64,000 bases of DNA, taken from a virus (Duplodnaviria > Heunggongvirae > Uroviricota > Caudoviricetes). Of the stretch, positions 38,367 to 46,161 are shown in pieces (positions within the stretch are counted from its first letter, which is position 1; each line of letters opens with the position of its first letter). Location of the stretch: IMG/VR virus record IMGVR_UViG_2913177423_000001, positions 1 through 64,000 of that record. One strand, 5' to 3'. Both the position numbers and the translations under genes were made by a program. The notes beneath the pieces were generated by a model, which saw only the letters and a list, made by a program, of their open reading frames with translations, had not been told where the DNA came from and did not search any database.

Positions 38367-39119
38367 TTAATCAGCCTCCAGTGGCAATAACGCCTTAGCC
38401 ATTTCATGAATCAGCATGGCATCAATGACGCCTAGCGTATGGCCCGGCTTAATCTTTAATGCGGCCTCAAGATAGCCTCTTTCCAGAGTGGTTTTTACGC
38501 TTTTCCTGGGCGCTTGTTGGGGACTATCCGGAAGATCCGGATGGTTGCCAGCCTCATAAGCTACCCGCAACCAGTGCATGAATGTTTCCGCAGACACACA
38601 ACCACAGTCCACATCGATTTTCCCGCGTTGCTGTTCCAGCCATTGCTCAAAATCTAACTTGCAAGCCTTACTTTCAAGTTCATCACCATTGAACTCGACT
38701 TTCTGCGACGCTATGAGAGCGGCTTCGTACTGTTCGCGAGAGACAACTGACTGGTATTCATCGCTATCAAGGTCACGAATTGGAAGCTCAATCTCACGAC
38801 AAAAATTCCGCCCATAGAACTGGTCTTTTTTGTGGTCTGAGCCAAAAGCAAAAGTCGCGCATGGCGCCATTAAATTGACACTGAGTATGTGACAATAACT
38901 CATGCCATCAGGCCATCCGCCGCACTTAGGCAACTCCTTCACTAATAAGTCGATCAGCTTCATTGTTTTACCATCTTTGCAAGTCGCCAAAGCCATTTGA
39001 GCAAGCGCCAATACTTCATCTGCCGTATATCCAGCACCGTGACCATACATTTCTATTCGGGAAATAATCTCTGATATACGCTCTTTATTGATTCTGATCA
39101 TAGTTCTATTTCCTTGCAT
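38367..39119 (-). CDS. hypothetical protein (250 aa)
   Basis: long ORF in leftward operon; Cys-rich; no motif recognised. Confidence 0.5.
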   Translation of the reverse strand: MQGNRTMIRINKERISEIISRIEMYGHGAGYTADEVLALAQMALATCKDGKTMKLIDLLVKELPKCGGWPDGMSYCHILSVNLMAPCATFAFGSDHKKDQFYGRNFCREIELPIRDLDSDEYQSVVSREQYEAALIASQKVEFNGDELESKACKLDFEQWLEQQRGKIDVDCGCVSAETFMHWLRVAYEAGNHPDLPDSPQQAPRKSVKTTLERGYLEAALKIKPGHTLGVIDAMLIHEMAKALLPLEAD

Positions 39120-40213: not shown

Positions 40214-40487
40214 TGATATTCACCTTTATTGCGTACACCTTTACCGGATTCTCTCCAAAGTGCGGATGTGTAATTGTCTTTATTTCATACCCTTCATACG
40301 GGACGTCTATTCTGCGACTGGAGTCGTCGCGCTTCGGATATCCCCTTGTGATAATCAGGCGGTCATACTCCCGGAACATAATTCGCTTATTCCAGTAGTC
40401 ATTACACAGGCGATACTCTTCCGTTTTCTCTCCGCGAATGATGGCATCGAAGTATTCACCTTTAACGGCAAGTTGCAGGTTAGCCAC
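40206..40487 (-). CDS. ASCH/PUA-like small protein
   Basis: GTG at 40487 preceded by AAGGAG; GEYFDAIIRGEKTEEYRL pattern resembles ASCH domain proteins. Confidence 0.4.
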   Translation of the reverse strand: MANLQLAVKGEYFDAIIRGEKTEEYRLCNDYWNKRIMFREYDRLIITRGYPKRDDSSRRIDVPYEGYEIKTITHPHFGENPVKVYAIKVNING

Positions 40488-40989
40488 GGTTAACTCCTTG
40501 CTGTGTGGCGTCGAGTAATAAATCCCACAACCGCTGAGAGCAATTTCCGCATGTACAGCGTTGACCCACAACGTTTATCGCGTTGCTGATTTCCGGCGTT
40601 ACCTGTTTAGGAACCATAACCCAACCATCCGGAGTTACCGGAGAGTTGCGCATTGCGACCTTTAATGCCTCATAGAAGCAACTTTTCAGATTGTTGAACT
40701 GACGCCCATTTAGAGGGCCGTGTTCAGTCAGCATGTTGTGTAATTTCCATGCCGCGTCGTTTACTTCGTTGGATGACAGGGGAGGCAGCTTGTAAGCCTG
40801 GCTTACAGGCTCGTCACCATTAAGCATGGCAGCGCGGAGTTTCTGTATCTCCCGTGCCATTATTGCGTCCTGACGAGGAGTGAACATATCACCTGCAATA
40901 ATTCTGTTTAGTTCCTCGTCAGTGAACTCATAATCATCAGGAACATTGTTAACCTCAGCATAAAGAGGCTTTTTGGTAGAAATGGTCAT
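40480..40989 (-). CDS. hypothetical protein (169 aa)
   Basis: ORF in leftward operon. Confidence 0.5.
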   Translation of the reverse strand: MTISTKKPLYAEVNNVPDDYEFTDEELNRIIAGDMFTPRQDAIMAREIQKLRAAMLNGDEPVSQAYKLPPLSSNEVNDAAWKLHNMLTEHGPLNGRQFNNLKSCFYEALKVAMRNSPVTPDGWVMVPKQVTPEISNAINVVGQRCTCGNCSQRLWDLLLDATQQGVNRG

Positions 40990-41612
40990 CGTAAAACACC
41001 CTCCACACTTACCAGTCCGTTCCGCAAAAGATAATCCATCGCCCTATCTGGTAATTTGCAATCAGGTTTTGCTTTTTTCAGTTGGCTGACCAATTGTTTA
41101 ACCAGCATTGTTAATTCGATAACCTGGTAGCGCGGCAATGGTGAATTATCGGATTTGTCCTGACTGTCTGCGCTGCATGAATGCCCTTCCAGCCAAGCCA
41201 ATGCTTGTCGCATGAAATACGCAATATGTTTGCCGTGGTAATCGTCTTCATCGATGTGAAAAGCGATACTGCGGATGTATTCAATTGCGTTTTCAATGGC
41301 CTCCGGCGTTATCGGCGCTGACATATTTTGATTTTGGAATGCCAAGACGCGGCTGGCATCCTCAACACCTTTAACTGCATCTGCGCAGTAGTTATAGCGA
41401 TTGCATTCCACTAACTTCTGCTTGAGATTTTCAATTGCTTGCGCGATTTTATCCGGCACTGGCGGTTCTGCCCGGCCTTTCCAGCCTTCCCACATGGCAG
41501 CCATCATCACGAACCAGGTGTTTCCACAGCCATCTTTTTTGTTATCAAAGAACCAGTCAGCGAACTCTAGGCTCATGCCATTTTGTTCTGCTATTTCATA
41601 TCGATTATCCAT
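40986..41612 (-). CDS. hypothetical protein (208 aa)
   Basis: ATGA-coupled ORF. Confidence 0.5.
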   Translation of the reverse strand: MDNRYEIAEQNGMSLEFADWFFDNKKDGCGNTWFVMMAAMWEGWKGRAEPPVPDKIAQAIENLKQKLVECNRYNYCADAVKGVEDASRVLAFQNQNMSAPITPEAIENAIEYIRSIAFHIDEDDYHGKHIAYFMRQALAWLEGHSCSADSQDKSDNSPLPRYQVIELTMLVKQLVSQLKKAKPDCKLPDRAMDYLLRNGLVSVEGVLR

Positions 41613-41627
41613 TGTTCATCTCCTTGT

Positions 41628-41909
41628 TTAGCATGGCGGCGCGGCGTATAGCTTACGGGTCTGAACGCCTTCCCCAAGGCGTTTCTCTCCCTCGGCAAAC
41701 CATTCGAAAGCACATTCCCCGCAATCTTCCCATTCCCCCCATTCATCATTTTCTGCATCCCACTGGCGATACTGATATGCCACAGGCTCTGCTCCCAGCG
41801 ATGCCAGCGCAATTTCATAAGCACGGCGCTCAATATTGTCTCTAACGTCCAGGCTACCGATTCGCTCTTTGATTTCTTTAATCAGTTCTTTGTCTGTAAA
41901 AGTGTTCAT
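41628..41909 (-). CDS. hypothetical acidic Trp-rich protein (93 aa)
   Basis: ORF in leftward operon. Confidence 0.45.
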   Translation of the reverse strand: MNTFTDKELIKEIKERIGSLDVRDNIERRAYEIALASLGAEPVAYQYRQWDAENDEWGEWEDCGECAFEWFAEGEKRLGEGVQTRKLYAAPPC

Positions 41910-41912
41910 AGG

Positions 41913-42101
41913 TTATCCTCTAAGTGCCACAACGCGCACTTCCGGGTCAAAGGATGATGAATTTTCATCTGTAATATCAGCGACATGGACTACGAAATCG
42001 TTATAGTCACCCTCTGATTGGTCATAGCCCTGCCAGACCACGACAGCCTCAGGAGGCATTTTTCTGAGCTTGCTGATTAACTGCCTCACTGTCAGTGACA
42101 T
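41913..42101 (-). CDS. hypothetical small protein (62 aa)
   Basis: internal ATG at 42101 removes overlap with the upstream gene. Confidence 0.35.
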   Translation of the reverse strand: MSLTVRQLISKLRKMPPEAVVVWQGYDQSEGDYNDFVVHVADITDENSSSFDPEVRVVALRG

Positions 42102-42102
42102 A

Positions 42103-42657
42103 TCACTCTCCTTTGATGCGAATGCCAGCGGCGCGGATAGATTTCCATTGTTCCCACATTCGGTTGAAGTCTGTGCCTGATAAGGTTGCGTTACGGTATC
42201 CAGTTTCGGTACGCAATCCTTCAAGCGTCGATTTGGAGATACAAATTGAATGCATTACCCATGATTCAAACAAATCACGCTCCCGAGCTTCGCAACTTTG
42301 CTTACTCATATATTCGATACGATCAGCCATCGCAGCGCACTCTTCAAAGTTGCTAAATGCCTTTCGCTCCCATTCAGCGCATTGTTTTCTAAGCTCTGCA
42401 ATCAGCTTGTCTTTGCCTTCCAGCTCAACGCGCAGCTTCCCTACCGTTAGCGCAATATCCTCATTCTCCTGATCGCGGTGTTTGATGTATTGCTGGTTTC
42501 TTTCCCGTTCATCCAGAAGCGCTAGCACAATGTGTGGCGTTATCAAGGACTCAAATTCGGTAACAGCTTGCTCACCTCGCTTGTAATTCTTAATCCCACC
42601 TAAATTTTTCGCGTTCTGTGCCGCCTCACGCAGTGCCTGGTAATTAATTTCGCTCAC
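42103..42657 (-). CDS. coiled-coil protein, member of a three-gene paralog family
   Basis: shares the L-VELE-K-IAEL coiled-coil motif with 42654..43361 and 43681..44382. Confidence 0.5.
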   Translation of the reverse strand: MSEINYQALREAAQNAKNLGGIKNYKRGEQAVTEFESLITPHIVLALLDERERNQQYIKHRDQENEDIALTVGKLRVELEGKDKLIAELRKQCAEWERKAFSNFEECAAMADRIEYMSKQSCEARERDLFESWVMHSICISKSTLEGLRTETGYRNATLSGTDFNRMWEQWKSIRAAGIRIKGE

Positions 42658-43361
42658 TGGCTGCCTCCTTTGCGAAGCTCTGCGGCAAAGTCAGTGGCAT
42701 GTTCACCGAGTAGTTTCCAGTTATCGCGTATATCAGATGCAAGCGACTGTTCGGATTTTGAGTTACATTTCTGTGCAAACATCTCCACCCCCTGCGCCCG
42801 CACTTCAGCCAGGAAAGCGCCAGTAGCAGGAGTGTCAATGCAAACACTGTCACGAAGGATGAAGAACGCATTAAGCATTCCTCTTTCTGGTACATCGTCC
42901 TGGCATTCCTCATATGCAGCCAATGCATCCATCATTTTCTGACCGAATTGCGGAGGTTGTGCAGATTTCAGTGCTATATTCTCCGCCGCCAGCGTCGCGC
43001 GATTGCTCTCCAGTTCTGCAATGCGCTGTTTTGCGGCATCAAGTTCAATCGACAATTTTTCCAACTGCTCTTTATGCTTTTTGTATGCCTGATATGCGTG
43101 CCAGGACTGTCCTTTGCGCACACTTTCAGTAATATCAGAAATCTGTTCTGGTGTTAGCGTGGTCAGTGGCTGCGCCGGGAAAATCAGCACTTTCCCGGCA
43201 TCCCAATCAAAACCCGCCTGAATTGACTGAACCTCAACTGATGGTGTTGAACCAATGCTACCTGGTGAATGGATAACAATCGCCATGTCCATATCACGAT
43301 GCTGGCAGTGTTTGTTGGACAAGATACGATTCACCAACTCAGAAAATTTGGAAAATTTCAT
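42654..43361 (-). CDS. coiled-coil protein, member of a three-gene paralog family
   Basis: [20 protein letters not shown] and C-terminal [15 protein letters not shown] match the paralogs; start likely ATG at 43361. Confidence 0.5.
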
Positions 43362-43684
43362 GCTGATTCCCTTTGCTCTTCTTGGATAATGTTGTTGCAA
43401 TCTTTCACGCACTCGTCACAGATGAAAACGTTGTCCCCGGCAATTAACTTTTTGACGGTGTGCTGGGATTTATTGCAGAAGCTGCAATAAAGCGTTGGAC
43501 TGGCTGATACGGATGGTGCTCCGGATGTCAGCCGCGCGATGTCGTCCTTGCGGCGCAACATCACACGGCAGCACTCAGCAAGTTTCTCCGGGGAGATTCC
43601 TTCCTCCGTGGCGAGTGCCTCCAGTCGTTCAAGCACGTGGAAGGCTTTTTCCTGGGTAAATGCAGAATGTGATATGGCCATCAT
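43358..43684 (-). CDS. ClpX-type zinc-binding-domain protein
   Basis: C-terminal [39 protein letters not shown] is near-identical in pattern to the ClpX N-terminal C4 zinc finger. Confidence 0.65.
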
Positions 43685-44382
43685 CTCTCCCCTTCAAAGT
43701 TCGGGCGCAGGCAGGATTGTCCTTTACGAAGCAGGGCTGCGAACCTGTCAGCCGCATCCGCGCAAGCAGAAGCAACGGAATCAAAAAATGGATCATCTCC
43801 GGTATCGCGCATCGTCAAAGCGAATGCCTCCAATCCCTGAGCCTGTATTTCTACAAGATAAGCCTCAGATATAGTGCTTTTCGCTTCACCTAACTCGTTA
43901 TGAGCTATGTTCGCTACACATGCGATGTCTATATCTGGATGATTAATTGGGAGATGGCTAAGAATTGCCTCAAGTGCTGCTTTTTTGTTTTGGCATTCCG
44001 CCACCAGCGCCCCGCTATTGCTTTCCAGCTCTGCAATACACTTTTTAGCGGCCTCCAGCTCAACACGCAGCTTCTCAAGCGTTAGGGCCATCTCCACTTT
44101 CTCGTCCAGCAGTTCAATCACATCAGGATCGCTACCATCAACTACTGATATGCGCGAATTTTTGTAATGCTCGTCAGCATAAGTTCGTCCAGTTTTGAAG
44201 CGTCCGTCAGCCTCCATGCCGGAACAGGCATAAACAACATGTGATCCAGATATGCGTTCCATTGACATTTCCTCGCCACAAACAGAGCATTTAGGCGCTG
44301 GTTTCGGTGAATAACGTTCACGTAACGGATAGTAAAGCTCGATCTCCGCCAGTTGCTCTGGCGTTAAACCTTCAGACTTCAT
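43681..44382 (-). CDS. coiled-coil protein with N-terminal Cys cluster, member of a three-gene paralog family
   Basis: [20 protein letters not shown] and [16 protein letters not shown] shared with paralogs. Confidence 0.5.
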
Positions 44383-44689
44383 GCACTCTCCTTTCGAAAT
44401 AAACGTACTGATTAATCATGCCCAGGGGCATTTCGAGTTTTTCCGCGATCTCACGGCGGGGAACGCCACACTGATGAAGCTGCCGCGCCAGCTCTATATC
44501 GCTCTGCCGATATTTGGCTGACTGGTGAAAGTCACCTTTCAGAATCATTCTGATCCCCAGTTCCCGCGCTTTAGTCCTGACAGCATCTCCGGTACGCCCG
44601 ATCAGCCTCCCGATACTCTCGACTGTCATAGTTCCGGCGCACTGGCGGAGTATCATGATTTCTGCCCTTCTCCATCCCCGCCATCTCAC
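44372..44689 (-). CDS. small HTH DNA-binding protein
   Basis: C-terminal HTH-like segment RREIAEKLEMPLGMINQY. Confidence 0.4.
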   Translation of the reverse strand: MRWRGWRRAEIMILRQCAGTMTVESIGRLIGRTGDAVRTKARELGIRMILKGDFHQSAKYRQSDIELARQLHQCGVPRREIAEKLEMPLGMINQYVYFERRVHEV

Positions 44690-45309
44690 GCTGACATCCT
44701 CTGAGACATAAACTCCACAAAACGAACTGCATCTTCAGAAACAACGCCGCATGACTTCAGATAATTCATTGCGTCATTAGGTAGCGGATTAGTTGGTTCG
44801 GCATTTGCCAGGGGTTGAGATAAACGCGTGATTAATTTGACCATTCTCCGCTGCCGGAGGTTGTATCCTTCAGCTAAAGACAGGTAACTGGAAAGGGTAT
44901 TGCTTAAGCGGGCGCGAAGCTGATCCGTGCCGTGACATTCAATAGCAACATCACGTAACGCATCGACCAGTTCACGGTAAATATGCGCAGCCATTCTGCA
45001 ATCTGAGTCAGACGGCGCTTCATAAATTACCGTCAGCTCCAGTTTTTCAGCCAGGGCGTGTTCTGCTCGTGCTCCTGCGGACGCTTCCCAGCCATTAAGC
45101 AGATAGATAGCATCAGCAGAACGCACCATTGCCAGGCAAATATCCATGTATTCGCTCTGACAAAGGCCACCAGGTAATACCGCCGGATTAAGAACGATAT
45201 GCCCTTCAGCCATCAGCTCGCTCGCTTTCGCATTAAACGCCGCGCGGTTGTAATCTGGATAACCAGTCATCGGACCCGCGATGTAAATTTTCAAAACACG
45301 TTTCACCAT
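44686..45309 (-). CDS. DUF4406 / nucleoside 2-deoxyribosyltransferase-like protein
   Basis: N-terminal KIYIAGPMTGYPDYN motif; ATG at 45309 after GGGGAA. Confidence 0.5.
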   Translation of the reverse strand: MVKRVLKIYIAGPMTGYPDYNRAAFNAKASELMAEGHIVLNPAVLPGGLCQSEYMDICLAMVRSADAIYLLNGWEASAGARAEHALAEKLELTVIYEAPSDSDCRMAAHIYRELVDALRDVAIECHGTDQLRARLSNTLSSYLSLAEGYNLRQRRMVKLITRLSQPLANAEPTNPLPNDAMNYLKSCGVVSEDAVRFVEFMSQRMSA

Positions 45310-45504
45310 CAAAATTTCCCCAGCATCGTGACGCAAAACATAAGCACTGCAAAAAGCTCAATACCAAGCTCAAGTAGCGCCAACGCGCCGAAAAACAGCA
45401 CATAAAACAGGCCGATCTCATTCACAGGTGGCTGGTGGATCGCACTTAAGGCTATAAGCATCATGTCCTCCAAACAGTAAACAGCGACTGATATTAATGT
45501 TTTG

Positions 45505-45534
45505 TGTTAGAAAATCAATTTTGAATATCTAACA
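45505..45534. promoter_or_regulatory. inverted pair of C1-like operator motifs
   Basis: TGTTAGAAAATCAATTT on plus strand overlapping TGTTAGATATTCAAAAT on minus strand, in the divergent region upstream of the ref-like gene. Confidence 0.5.
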
Positions 45535-45582
45535 AATATGATCAATCATAAAAAAATCGCTGATAAGTAAGAGGCAGCCAAC

Positions 45583-46161
45583 ATGCAGAGACAGAGTTAT
45601 TGGGAGAAACAGAGACAAAAAGCCATGCAAAAACTGGCTGATCCGGAATGGCGGGAAGAGCAAAGGGCAAAACGTCTTCAGCAGGCTCAACGCCAGCAGC
45701 AACGCGCAAGGGAAAAAGCCGCATCGCCTGAATATCGTCAAAAGAAACTTGAAAAAGTGAGGCAAAGTGAACAGCGCAGAAGAGAGAGGGCGGCGTCAGC
45801 CCTCCCCAAAAAAACGCGCCCGTCACGCGGATTAAAAGGGAGATCACTCACAGCAGAAGAGCGCCGGATACAGGAGGCTATAGGCAAACTCCCCTGTATT
45901 GCCTGCCATCTTCACGGGAAGCATAGCCCTGTCGTATCTCTCCACCACATATTTGGCAGAACGGCTAAAGATGCCCATAAATACGTTCTCCCTTTGTGTA
46001 AATGGCACCACCAGCACGCAGCGCCAGCAGAGATCCGCGAACAATATCCCTGGTTGGTTCCTGTTCATGCTGATGGAAAAATAGGCGGGAAAGCAGATTT
46101 TATACGGCACAATGCCGAAGAGATGACGCTCTATCAGACGGTGCAAGAAATGGTGAATTAA
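45583..46161 (+). CDS. ref: Ref-like HNH endonuclease
   Basis: 192 aa; highly charged disordered N-terminus followed by HNH-like Cys/His cluster CIACHLHGKH and CKWHHQ, as in P1 Ref. Confidence 0.7.
   Translation: MQRQSYWEKQRQKAMQKLADPEWREEQRAKRLQQAQRQQQRAREKAASPEYRQKKLEKVRQSEQRRRERAASALPKKTRPSRGLKGRSLTAEERRIQEAIGKLPCIACHLHGKHSPVVSLHHIFGRTAKDAHKYVLPLCKWHHQHAAPAEIREQYPWLVPVHADGKIGGKADFIRHNAEEMTLYQTVQEMVN

Follow-up and report, generated by a model that had tools for sequence, protein, structure and literature searches.

Ead/Ea22-family genes and a ClpX-type zinc-finger gene in one operon of a D6-like phage-plasmid: a probable assembly of recombined modules

Introduction

The D6-like (P1-related) phage-plasmid of Escherichia sp. 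E14S1 carries three neighbouring genes for coiled-coil proteins, here termed A, B, and C, together with a gene for a ClpX-type zinc-finger (ZBD) protein. The initial annotation of this DNA regarded the trio as a tandem expansion of paralogs that might mark a diversifying host-interaction or anti-defence family. The locus therefore raises the question of whether the three genes descend from one recently duplicated ancestor or were brought together in another way. We analyzed the locus within a 64,000-nt stretch of the element, referred to as the window; all coordinates are positions in it.

Results

Gene layout of the locus

The three ORFs that had been claimed are present on the minus strand and agree with the gene calls of the source contig, which gives 233, 107, 235, and 184 aa for A, the ZBD protein, B, and C, respectively (Table 1). 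The peptides quoted for the trio were found at residues 103–122 and 173–187 of A, 101–120 and 181–195 of B, and 73–92 of C, and the ClpX zinc-finger gene reported amid the trio is real and lies between A and B. Its start overlaps the stop of A, and its stop overlaps the start of B (ATGA). No promoter-like (sigma-70) or terminator-like site was observed on the coding strand within 41500–45700, and A, the ZBD gene, B, and C were therefore regarded as a single translationally coupled minus-strand operon, divergent from ref. The gene for a putative DNA-binding protein of 105 aa belongs to the same operon as A, the start of which it overlaps by 11 nt, and RefSeq relatives of its product carry the name DNA-binding protein. 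The "early" expression of the operon is assumed from context. The P1 C1 operator consensus had no match in the window when up to 3 mismatches were allowed, and the operon can therefore not be assigned to C1 control. In tblastn, approximate P1 Phd and Doc queries gave no match in the window, which spans 64 of the 83.4 kb of the source contig.

Table 1. Positions of the genes, modules, and conserved blocks of the locus in the window.
Feature	Position	Strand	Basis or remark
Putative DNA-binding protein gene, 105 aa, upstream of A	44372–44689	-	phrog_323, 2e-27
Gene A (Ead/Ea22-like, 233 aa)	43681–44382	-	ORF and source gene call
A_N, residues 1–93	44104–44382	-	Cys/His-containing beta region, low model confidence
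A coiled coil, residues 94–135	43978–44103	-	
A helical CTD, residues 136–233	43684–43977	-	
ClpX-type zinc-finger (ZBD) gene, 107/108 aa	43358–43684	-	PF06689, 64.8 bits
Gene B (235 aa; ATG start at 43361)	42654–43361	-	ORF and source gene call
B_N, residues 1–95	43077–43361	-	phrog_6026
B coiled coil, residues 96–135	42957–43076	-	
B helical CTD, homologous to A CTD, residues 136–235	42657–42956	-	
B/C junction, ...LRKGGSQ-stop overlapping GTG-AGC-GAA...	42624–42677	-	
Gene C (184 aa), closest of the trio to lambda Ea22	42103–42657	-	PF13935, 70 bits
C Ea22-type N, residues 1–60	42478–42657	-	
Conserved Ead/Ea22 core block in C, residues 42–80, HIVLALLDERERNQQYIKHRDQENEDIALTVGKLRVELE	42418–42534	-	
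C coiled coil, residues 61–100	42358–42477	-	
C CTD, unrelated to A/B CTD, residues 101–184	42106–42357	-	phrog_29036
27-nt 3' boundary block GCTGGCATTCGCATCAAAGGAGAGTGA (AGIRIKGE-stop)	42103–42129	-	100% identical to lambda ea22 3' end
62-aa gene downstream of C, translationally coupled (TGAtATG)	41913–42101	-	phrog_6161

Family membership

The gathering score of PF13935 (IPR025153, Ead_Ea22) is 27 bits, and A (38.0 bits) and C (70.0 bits) both exceeded it. No Pfam match was obtained for B itself; its homologues at 72–74% identity carry PF13935. Furthermore, phrog_368 matched A (7e-44), B (4e-51), and C as well, and RefSeq proteins that are 97% identical to A are named ead/Ea22-like. None of the three proteins was assigned a family by NCBIfam. 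By profile, B is a borderline member of the Ead/Ea22 family and, via its homology to A, a clear one; on these matches, A, B, and C are three different members of the known family. The trio has the tripartite layout of the family, with an N region, a central coiled coil, and a variable C-terminal domain. The genes lie in a phage-plasmid operon near ref and not in the pL early-left (exo-xis) region, and location does not define the family because Ead/Ea22-type homologues are also present in lambdoid nin regions. Published work already covers the family, including its three-part layout and mosaic nature, and RefSeq already gives close homologues the family name.

Similarity among A, B, and C

BLASTP of A against B gave 30% identity over 135 aa (E 2e-9) and still E 1e-5 when the C-terminal parts alone were compared with the coiled coil removed. 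The corresponding values were 62% over 26 aa (E 1e-5) for A and C and E 0.008 for B and C. In hhalign comparisons of the family profiles, A and B aligned with 99.4% probability (E 4e-21, 123 columns), and C aligned with A at 95.3% (E 2e-8, 38 columns) and with B at 89% (E 2e-6, 49 columns). These results indicate that the coiled-coil segment described as common to the trio is similar above chance and that the C-terminal block noted in two copies belongs to a helical CTD that A and B alone share past the core. The kinship of C to A and B is confined to the coiled-coil core of ~40–50 residues; A and B also align over their CTDs, which are all-helical in the AlphaFold models. The N-terminal modules of the three proteins are mutually unrelated.

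The nucleotide identity of the core was 69–74% (A–C and A–B). Four of the five shared blocks gave dS values of 1.17, 3.1, 1.65, and beyond the correction limit, which are near saturation or saturated, and the lowest value, 0.44, was that of the 26-codon A–C coiled-coil block. A whole-gene dN/dS was not adopted, given that synonymous sites beyond the short shared blocks are saturated, and the proposed dN/dS comparison of the three copies is uninformative at such divergence.

Predicted structures and function

The AlphaFold2 model of A predicts a helix at residues 86–142 (block-mean pLDDT of 63–92, with 85–92 over residues 101–130) and that of B a helix at residues 87–133; block means of the two models were about 80–92 over residues 101–130. 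The CTDs of A and B are predicted to be all-helical. The mean pLDDT was ~63 for both models, with low confidence in the N modules. Single-register heptad enrichment was reached in 3, 11, and 39 of 2000 shuffles across the trio (3 of 2000 for A). A sequence search of the PDB with A, B, and C gave only a formin coiled coil at E ≤1, and Foldseek found no PDB match with E <0.1 for the model of A; the CTD fold of lambda Ea22 was not recognized in A, B, or C by the PDB sequence search, nor in A by Foldseek. B_N also exists as a stand-alone protein, LIT1 gp63.

The only characterised relative is lambda Ea22, which is non-essential and favours lysogeny (PMC7093339, PMC10834534, PMC10695390). A tetrameric full-length protein with a dimeric CTD and lysogeny-favouring activity has been described only for the lambda protein and a few from Stx phages (PMC10834534). 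We infer the function of A, B, and C by analogy: they would probably be non-essential oligomeric proteins like lambda Ea22, the N-terminal and coiled-coil half of which is common to C, and their stalk would display pairs of modules, which would bind targets in the host or the phage and thereby tip the element toward lysogeny or plasmid maintenance. The suggested anti-defence marking is unsupported. PADLOC-DB, which contains models of defence systems and not of anti-defence proteins, gave a trivial coiled-coil match, that of B to JetC (E 0.004), as its sole hit.

Module shuffling and recombination

The modules of the trio occur elsewhere in other combinations. A_N is combined with C_CTD in P0160 (89% and 100% identity), an Ea22-type N with A_CTD in P0131 (95%), B_N with A_CTD in P0142 (87% and 93%), and A_N with DUF551 among further homologues. 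C matched 426 representative clusters, most of which align only with residues 1–92 or only with residues 113–184. P0142 was also considered as the reciprocal product of an A x B exchange and was rejected as such, being situated in a lambdoid nin region and not in a D6-like duplication.

The copy number, which was to be compared among related elements, varies between relatives. In the D6-like locus L072, one hybrid Ead gene lies between the DNA-binding gene and DUF4752, and the ZBD gene is absent. Nucleotides 1–360 of the hybrid are 97–100% identical to A of the window and nucleotides 361–570 are 93–100% identical to B, with the switch point inside the coiled-coil block. Among 60 plasmids, 81 of 110 homology endpoints fell in zones at gene boundaries or in the coiled coil, which together account for 27.5% of the sequence, a proportion to be read with the facts that these zones were drawn after seeing the data and that the plasmids are not independent.

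Conserved blocks and embedded ribosome-binding sites

At the DNA level, the core block of C shares ~93% identity with lambda ea22. It also occurs at 90–95% identity in many otherwise unrelated plasmids, the matches of which are confined to query positions 1912–2043. The B/C junction contains AAAGGAGG, the Shine-Dalgarno sequence for C; this junction recurs between other Ead genes and is identical in L002, and a KGGNQ-stop/MSEINYQ junction occurs in P2-like prophages too. Likewise, the 27-nt block GCTGGCATTCGCATCAAAGGAGAGTGA bears the Shine-Dalgarno sequence of the gene that follows, which starts with ATG at 42101. Such sequences form part of the last codons of the preceding gene.

A C-terminal K/R-G-E tripeptide of the Ea22 family was noted by Dydecka et al. 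2020, and C ends in IRIKGE; the C-terminus of B is RKGGSQ, and A has an internal RKGQS and ends in EGER. The KGE codons are AAAGGAGAG, with synonymous forms such as AAGGGCGAA. This "+GE" motif falls on the Shine-Dalgarno sequence of the following gene. Its reading as a ribosome-binding site and boundary block of that gene offers a simple explanation for a motif that has been called unexplained in the Ea22 literature.

ClpX-type zinc-finger gene

In the ZBD protein, the first ~60 aa are unique and precede a copy of the ClpX N-domain; at only 108 aa, the protein has no AAA+ module. Its CSFC...CDEC segment aligns with about residues 10–55 of E. coli ClpX in the ZBD structures 1OVX and 2DS5 (E 2e-16). 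A search of contigs with the ZBD protein, one genome per species, returned cellular clpX genes only, and nothing relevant on free ClpX zinc-finger proteins encoded by phages emerged from a search of the literature. The ZBD gene adjoins an Ead_Ea22 gene in three lineages, namely D6-like phage-plasmids, the 108-kb phage-plasmid PhiR41_1, and P2-like prophages, in which the pair lies between gpA-ParM and the portal gene.

Discussion

We consider it likely that the trio comprises mosaic Ead/Ea22 members which share one accessory operon with the ZBD gene, and that their modules were recombined at conserved joints and do not stem from recent duplication. In each protein, a conserved heptad coiled-coil stalk would connect a variable module at the N-terminus with another at the C-terminus. 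Conserved DNA, comprising the coiled-coil core, the start block, and the ...RKGG.Q-stop and ...IRIKGE-stop end blocks, would provide joints for homologous recombination. Exchange at these joints, both between phages and between tandem copies in one element, would reshuffle the modules and change the copy number, and the present trio would thus be an assembly of independently circulating modules and not a recent local duplicate. Diversification is most likely recombinational module shuffling at conserved joints, not a point-mutation arms race of duplicates.

The genes do form one family, stand in tandem in one operon, and are highly diversified, as the initial annotation had it; the idea of a tandem paralog expansion did not survive the comparison of their modules. 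A recent tandem duplication of one ancestor followed by diversifying selection, giving an arms-race family for host interaction or anti-defence, would agree with the adjacency and common orientation of the genes, their common coiled-coil segment, the CTD common to A and B, and the great diversity of the family. However, the N modules are unrelated, the CTD of C is unlike that of A and B, and dS runs from 0.44 up to saturation in the shared blocks. Each module has copies elsewhere in other combinations, and these outside single-module homologues are 87–100% identical versus the 30% between A and B, which is not the pattern of a recent tandem array. Moreover, segments of the locus match lambdoid, P22-like, and SSU5-like elements at 85–95% identity, the breaks falling within the genes, and no relevant PADLOC match was obtained. 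Recent duplication is therefore largely refuted by the module phylogeny, and we regard it as very unlikely. It is scarcely credible that the resemblance is a compositional artefact of coiled coils in unrelated genes. The similarity of C to A and B does span just ~40–50 helical residues, and the weak matches to BAR, Sec3_CC, and JetC are generic coiled-coil noise, but A and C exceed the PF13935 threshold, the hhalign E values and the core nucleotide identity given above are at odds with an artefact, A and B remain similar without the coiled coil, and real recombinants cross over within the coiled-coil block.

The Ead/Ea22 and ZBD proteins could form one functional cassette, in which the ZBD would imitate the N-domain of ClpX, and the coiled-coil proteins would act together with the ZBD, or be regulated via it, to redirect proteolysis by ClpXP; we consider such a cassette unlikely. 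Its adjacent genes occur in three unrelated temperate lineages, and the ZBD is close to the host ClpX N-domain, the structures of which include a complex with the SspB tail. However, the genes may be adjacent only because they were transferred together as parts of a mosaic: the stretch from the A 3' end through the ZBD gene to B_N moves as a unit (85–90% identity), and natural deletions lose the ZBD gene yet keep a hybrid Ead gene. In addition, phage P88 has a ZBD gene with no annotated Ead neighbour, and Ea22 is present without a ZBD gene in lambda, P22, and Stx phages. It is similarly doubtful that a ClpX N-domain mimic and oligomeric Ea22-type proteins together retune the substrate choice of ClpXP toward lysogeny or plasmid maintenance. 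If this were true, the lysogeny-favouring activity of lambda Ea22 would gain a concrete ClpXP pathway. The ZBD gene travelling with Ea22-family genes in three lineages is a testable lead, the only one worth following.

Comparison with known systems

The mosaic organisation of Ea22 and its lysogeny-favouring role are already in the literature (PMC10834534, PMC7093339). C matched lambda Ea22 over residues 1–85 in tblastn (63.6% identity, E 2e-19), and the start, middle, and end blocks are conserved in the alignment of C with lambda ea22 DNA. C shares with lambda Ea22 the start block MSEIN.QALREAA, the core IVL.LLDERERNQQYIK.RDQENEDIALTVGKLRVELE (64%, residues 1–85), the last 8 residues AGIRIKGE, which derive from the 27-nt identical DNA block, and the layout of N module, coiled coil, and CTD. 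A and B resemble lambda Ea22 only via the coiled-coil core. In contrast to lambda, in which a single gene lies in the pL exo-xis region, three copies lie here in a phage-plasmid operon by ref; the CTD of C is unrelated to the NMR-solved alpha/beta CTD of lambda, and the CTDs of A and B are all-helical in the models.

The Stx-phage Ea22 variants V1–V3 and P22 Ead are mosaics with a common N region and coiled coil and swapped CTDs, including DUF551 (Goddard et al. 2024, PMC10834534). DUF551-type partners are found among the homologues of A too, whereas A_N (Cys/His), B_N (phrog_6026), and the helical CTD of A and B represent other variants, and swapping of N modules is evident here beyond the CTD swaps.

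Escherichia phage D6 provided orf92, orf93, and orf100 for comparison. Its orf92 matches A at 92.7% identity over residues 15–233, and its orf93 matches the ZBD protein at 78.6%; the two genes lie in the same place by the DUF4406 and ref genes. Unlike the locus in the window, that of D6 has no B or C, and DUF4752 follows the ZBD gene directly. The orf93 product of D6 is annotated as "carboxylate--amine ligase".

Short conserved boundary ("linker") sequences are an established model of modular evolution in lambdoid mosaic genomes. The locus agrees with this model in that homology to other phages ends at short conserved blocks, which lie at the starts and ends of genes as well as within them. 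It differs in having one joint within a gene, where the coiled coil is structurally permissive and recombination therefore produces in-frame domain swaps; one example of these (L072) is documented. The locus is a clean DNA-level example of an in-frame domain swap at a coiled-coil joint, including a natural A x B recombinant with loss of the zinc-finger gene.

Similarity among the three coiled-coil proteins

It is well supported that A, B, and C, the three coiled-coil genes on the minus strand, are module-shuffled members of the phage Ead/Ea22 family (PF13935) that recombine at conserved joints. PF13935 was matched by A (38 bits) and C (70 bits; cutoff, 27), and B fell below the threshold in the Pfam search. 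Homologues of B (72–74% identity) have PF13935 and are named ead/Ea22-like, and phrog_368 was matched by A, B, and C alike. These results establish the family membership.

The initial annotation had proposed that the three genes share a coiled-coil segment; the peptides it quoted were found, and pairwise and profile comparisons agreed. A and B aligned by BLASTP (30% over 135 aa, E 2e-9; C-terminal parts alone, E 1e-5) and by hhalign of family profiles (99.4%, E 4e-21) over 123 columns comprising the coiled coil and the entire C-terminal module (CTD). The values for A and C were 62% over 26 aa (E 1e-5) and 95.3% over 38 columns (E 2e-8), and those for B and C were E 0.008 and 89% over 49 columns (E 2e-6). 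Both profile matches of C are limited to the LLDE...KLRVELE...IAELE core. The proposed similarity is thus confirmed, with the limit that C is tied to A and B through the coiled-coil core only. AlphaFold2 predicted one long helix in each of A (86–142) and B (87–133), with block-mean pLDDT values of approximately 80–92 over residues 101–130, and the region past the coil was predicted to be helical with a terminal two-helix hairpin (pLDDT approximately 72–88). The a/d positions are rich in L/I/V/M in a single register, and the observed values were reached by 3, 11, and 39 of 2000 shuffles. The segment common to the three proteins is a true coiled coil with heptad periodicity.

Module shuffling and synonymous divergence

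None of the N-terminal modules (A_N, B_N, and C_N) is related to another. A_N, a beta region containing Cys/His, is also present in ES18 gp41 and ST64B Sb32, and C_N is of the lambda Ea22 type. B_N (phrog_6026) stands alone as a 121-aa protein (gp63, L070 601–966; 38% identity) directly after ssb in the lytic, N4-like Pseudomonas phage LIT1, and it also occurs in Klebsiella and Aeromonas phages. Its stand-alone occurrence in N4-like phages suggests that B_N is an independent functional domain with a host range much wider than that of the Ead/Ea22 core.

Synonymous divergence across the common blocks is high. The dS values, which are rough because the blocks are short, were 0.44 for the A–C coiled coil (26 codons), 1.17 for A–B, and 3.1 for B–C; in the A–B CTD, the first block (16 codons) was past the correction limit (pS 0.81) and the second (19 codons) gave 1.65. 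In a set of 240 homologues from the database, modules of the window recur in other combinations at high identity: A_N with the CTD of C (P0160; 89% and 100%), an Ea22-type N module with the CTD of A (P0131; 95%), B_N with the CTD of A (P0142; 87% and 93%), A_N with a B-type CTD (P0132), and A_N with DUF551. Moreover, C matched 426 clusters in a set of 1.84 billion representative proteins, most of which cover only residues 1–92 or only 113–184. The architecture is thus modular, and the unrelated N modules, the high dS, and the recurrence of modules in other combinations elsewhere argue against the proposed tandem paralog expansion; A, B, and C are most probably shuffled modules and not recent duplicates. 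The suggested anti-defence family is not supported: a PADLOC profile search, against models of defence systems, gave nothing pointing to it. The trio is a commonplace example of a mosaic gene family already known from phages.

Short modules are common to other genes of the operon too. A 208-aa protein has in its last ~40 residues a segment similar both to the C-terminal tail of the DUF4406 protein (E 3e-4) and to the beginning of the 62-aa protein, and segments of DUF551-type Ead/Ea22 proteins were matched by a 250-aa protein (E 7e-22) and a 169-aa protein (E 3e-7). Overall, the operon has the appearance of a patchwork built from shuffled modules. Chimeric Ead/Ea22 genes with the window's modules also lie in lambdoid nin regions (L073 3501–4112, L075 2691–3359), downstream of lambda-P-type replication genes, which indicates that the family is not limited to pL 'ea' regions.

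Operon organization and element

Features at the locus (positions in the window)
Feature	Coordinates	Strand	Remark
Inverted repeat	45505-45534		TGTTAGA-N16-TCTAACA
ref	45583-46161	+	
Small hydrophobic ORF	45309-45464	-	51 aa, very hydrophobic; first ORF of operon
DUF4406 gene	44686-45336	-	
Putative DNA-binding protein gene	44372-44689	-	105 aa
Gene A	43681-44382	-	233 aa
ClpX-type zinc-finger (ZBD) gene	43358-43684	-	
Gene B	42654-43361	-	235 aa
B_N	43077-43361		N-terminal module of B
B/C junction	42624-42677	-	RKGGSQ* then C start
Gene C	42103-42657	-	184 aa
3' block of C	42103-42129	-	27 nt
62-aa gene	41913-42101	-	
208-aa protein gene	40986-41612	-	
169-aa protein gene	40480-40989	-	
250-aa protein gene	38367-39119	-	

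Overlapping minus-strand genes run from approximately 45464 to beyond 41913. All junctions overlap or nearly do, and A starts within the 3' end of the upstream gene. The A/ZBD and ZBD/B junctions are ATGA overlaps, B/C is a GTGA overlap, and C is followed by TGAtATG. Promoter-like and terminator-like sites were absent in a scan of the coding strand over 41500–45700. These translational coupling signals fit one polycistronic, translationally coupled unit. The inverted repeat, in the AT-rich divergent region between ref and the first ORF, is a possible operator; the P1 C1 operator consensus had no match anywhere in the window. The first ORF is also kept in D6 (orf88) and related plasmids.

A protein encoded by Escherichia sp. 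E14S1 (83,414-bp contig, GCA_004211995.1 RHJQ01000032.1) has 100% identity to B, and the gene calls on that contig agree with ours. The locus is 87–93% identical to ~90-kb circular E. coli plasmids and phage D6, and its neighbours include ref, icd-like, and ant/Rha genes; the element is therefore a D6-like, P1-related phage-plasmid.

Recombination joints and conserved gene ends

In 60 plasmids sampled across the megablast ranking, homology ends cluster at gene boundaries (query positions 720–770, 1069–1090, 1758–1802, and 2348–2352) and at coiled-coil block ends (349, 1427–1473, and 2029–2043); of 110 endpoints, 81 lie within zones that together span 27.5% of the sequence, a descriptive figure, as the zones were drawn post hoc and the plasmids are related. 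A D6-like relative (L072) is the stronger example. Its order is ref, DUF4406, DNA-binding gene, a single 238-aa Ead gene, and DUF4752, without the zinc-finger gene or a separate B. The Ead gene is 97–100% identical to A over nt 1–360 and 93–100% identical to B over nt 361–570, and the switch falls within the coiled-coil coding block. This hybrid demonstrates recombination at the coiled-coil joint and is the product expected of tandem A × B recombination, with loss of the CTD of A, the ZBD gene, and B_N. The locus holds an A type and ZBD only in D6; A, ZBD, and B in L001; two Ead genes, ZBD, and a B type in L002; and A, ZBD, B, and C in the window. This copy-number variation accords with recombination between tandem copies.

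The Ead/Ea22 genes of the window and its relatives end in ...IRIKGE*, ...LRKGG(S/N)Q*, or ...EGER*, and these codons form an AAAGGAG-type Shine-Dalgarno sequence 5–12 nt before the next start, which overlaps or abuts the stop. P2-like prophages and a further plasmid have a B/C junction of this same form. The 3' block of C is identical to lambda (L004 2023–2049), where the end is retained, yet the next gene is at least ~190 nt away. The simplest reading is that the K/R-G-E end of Ea22, noted as unexplained by Dydecka et al. (PMC7093339), would serve at the nucleotide level as a boundary and ribosome-binding block and would not be a motif of the protein.

ClpX-type zinc-finger gene

The ZBD protein consists of a ~60-residue unique region followed by ~45 C-terminal residues whose alignment to the ClpX N-domain of E. 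coli (1OVX, 2DS5) is close (E 2e-16), without the AAA+ part. Its relatives are often mis-annotated as 'carboxylate--amine ligase'. The gene adjoins Ead_Ea22 genes in three lineages: D6-like elements, a 108-kb phage-plasmid, and P2-like prophages, where it lies between gpA-ParM-StbB and the portal gene; the homologues in the latter two are 68–79% identical. Functional coupling of the two could explain this recurrence, and the ZBD protein may serve as a decoy for adaptors or substrates of ClpX. Nevertheless, we consider such coupling improbable: the adjacency could be mere co-transfer of a mosaic block, since the stretch from the 3' end of A through ZBD to B_N travels as a unit. ZBD is also lost in natural deletions. 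A literature search for phage-encoded free ClpX zinc-finger proteins found nothing relevant. The ClpX-ZBD association is the sole lead at the locus with some potential.

Comparison with lambda Ea22

Lambda Ea22 is a non-essential, tetrameric early protein that favours lysogeny, in which a central coiled coil lies between a short N region and a dimeric CTD; Ea22 of Stx phages occurs as mosaic variants whose CTDs differ, DUF551 among them (PMC7093339, PMC10834534, PMC8614690, PMC10695390). By analogy with the lambda tetramer, the coiled coil would oligomerise the window's proteins and present the variable N and C modules. Reports on lambda and Stx-phage Ea22 suggest that A, B, and C may be dispensable modulators tilting the element to lysogeny or plasmid maintenance.

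C is 63.6% identical to lambda Ea22 over residues 1–85 and is its direct relative. At the DNA level, the start block is conserved, a ~115-nt block encoding IVL.LLDERERNQQYIK.RDQENEDIALTVGKLRVELE is ~93% identical, the C-terminal part is unrelated, and the 27-nt block GCTGGCATTCGCATCAAAGGAGAGTGA is 100% identical. The lambda CTD is inactive by itself, and the N and coiled-coil parts are needed for activity; these are precisely the parts that C has.
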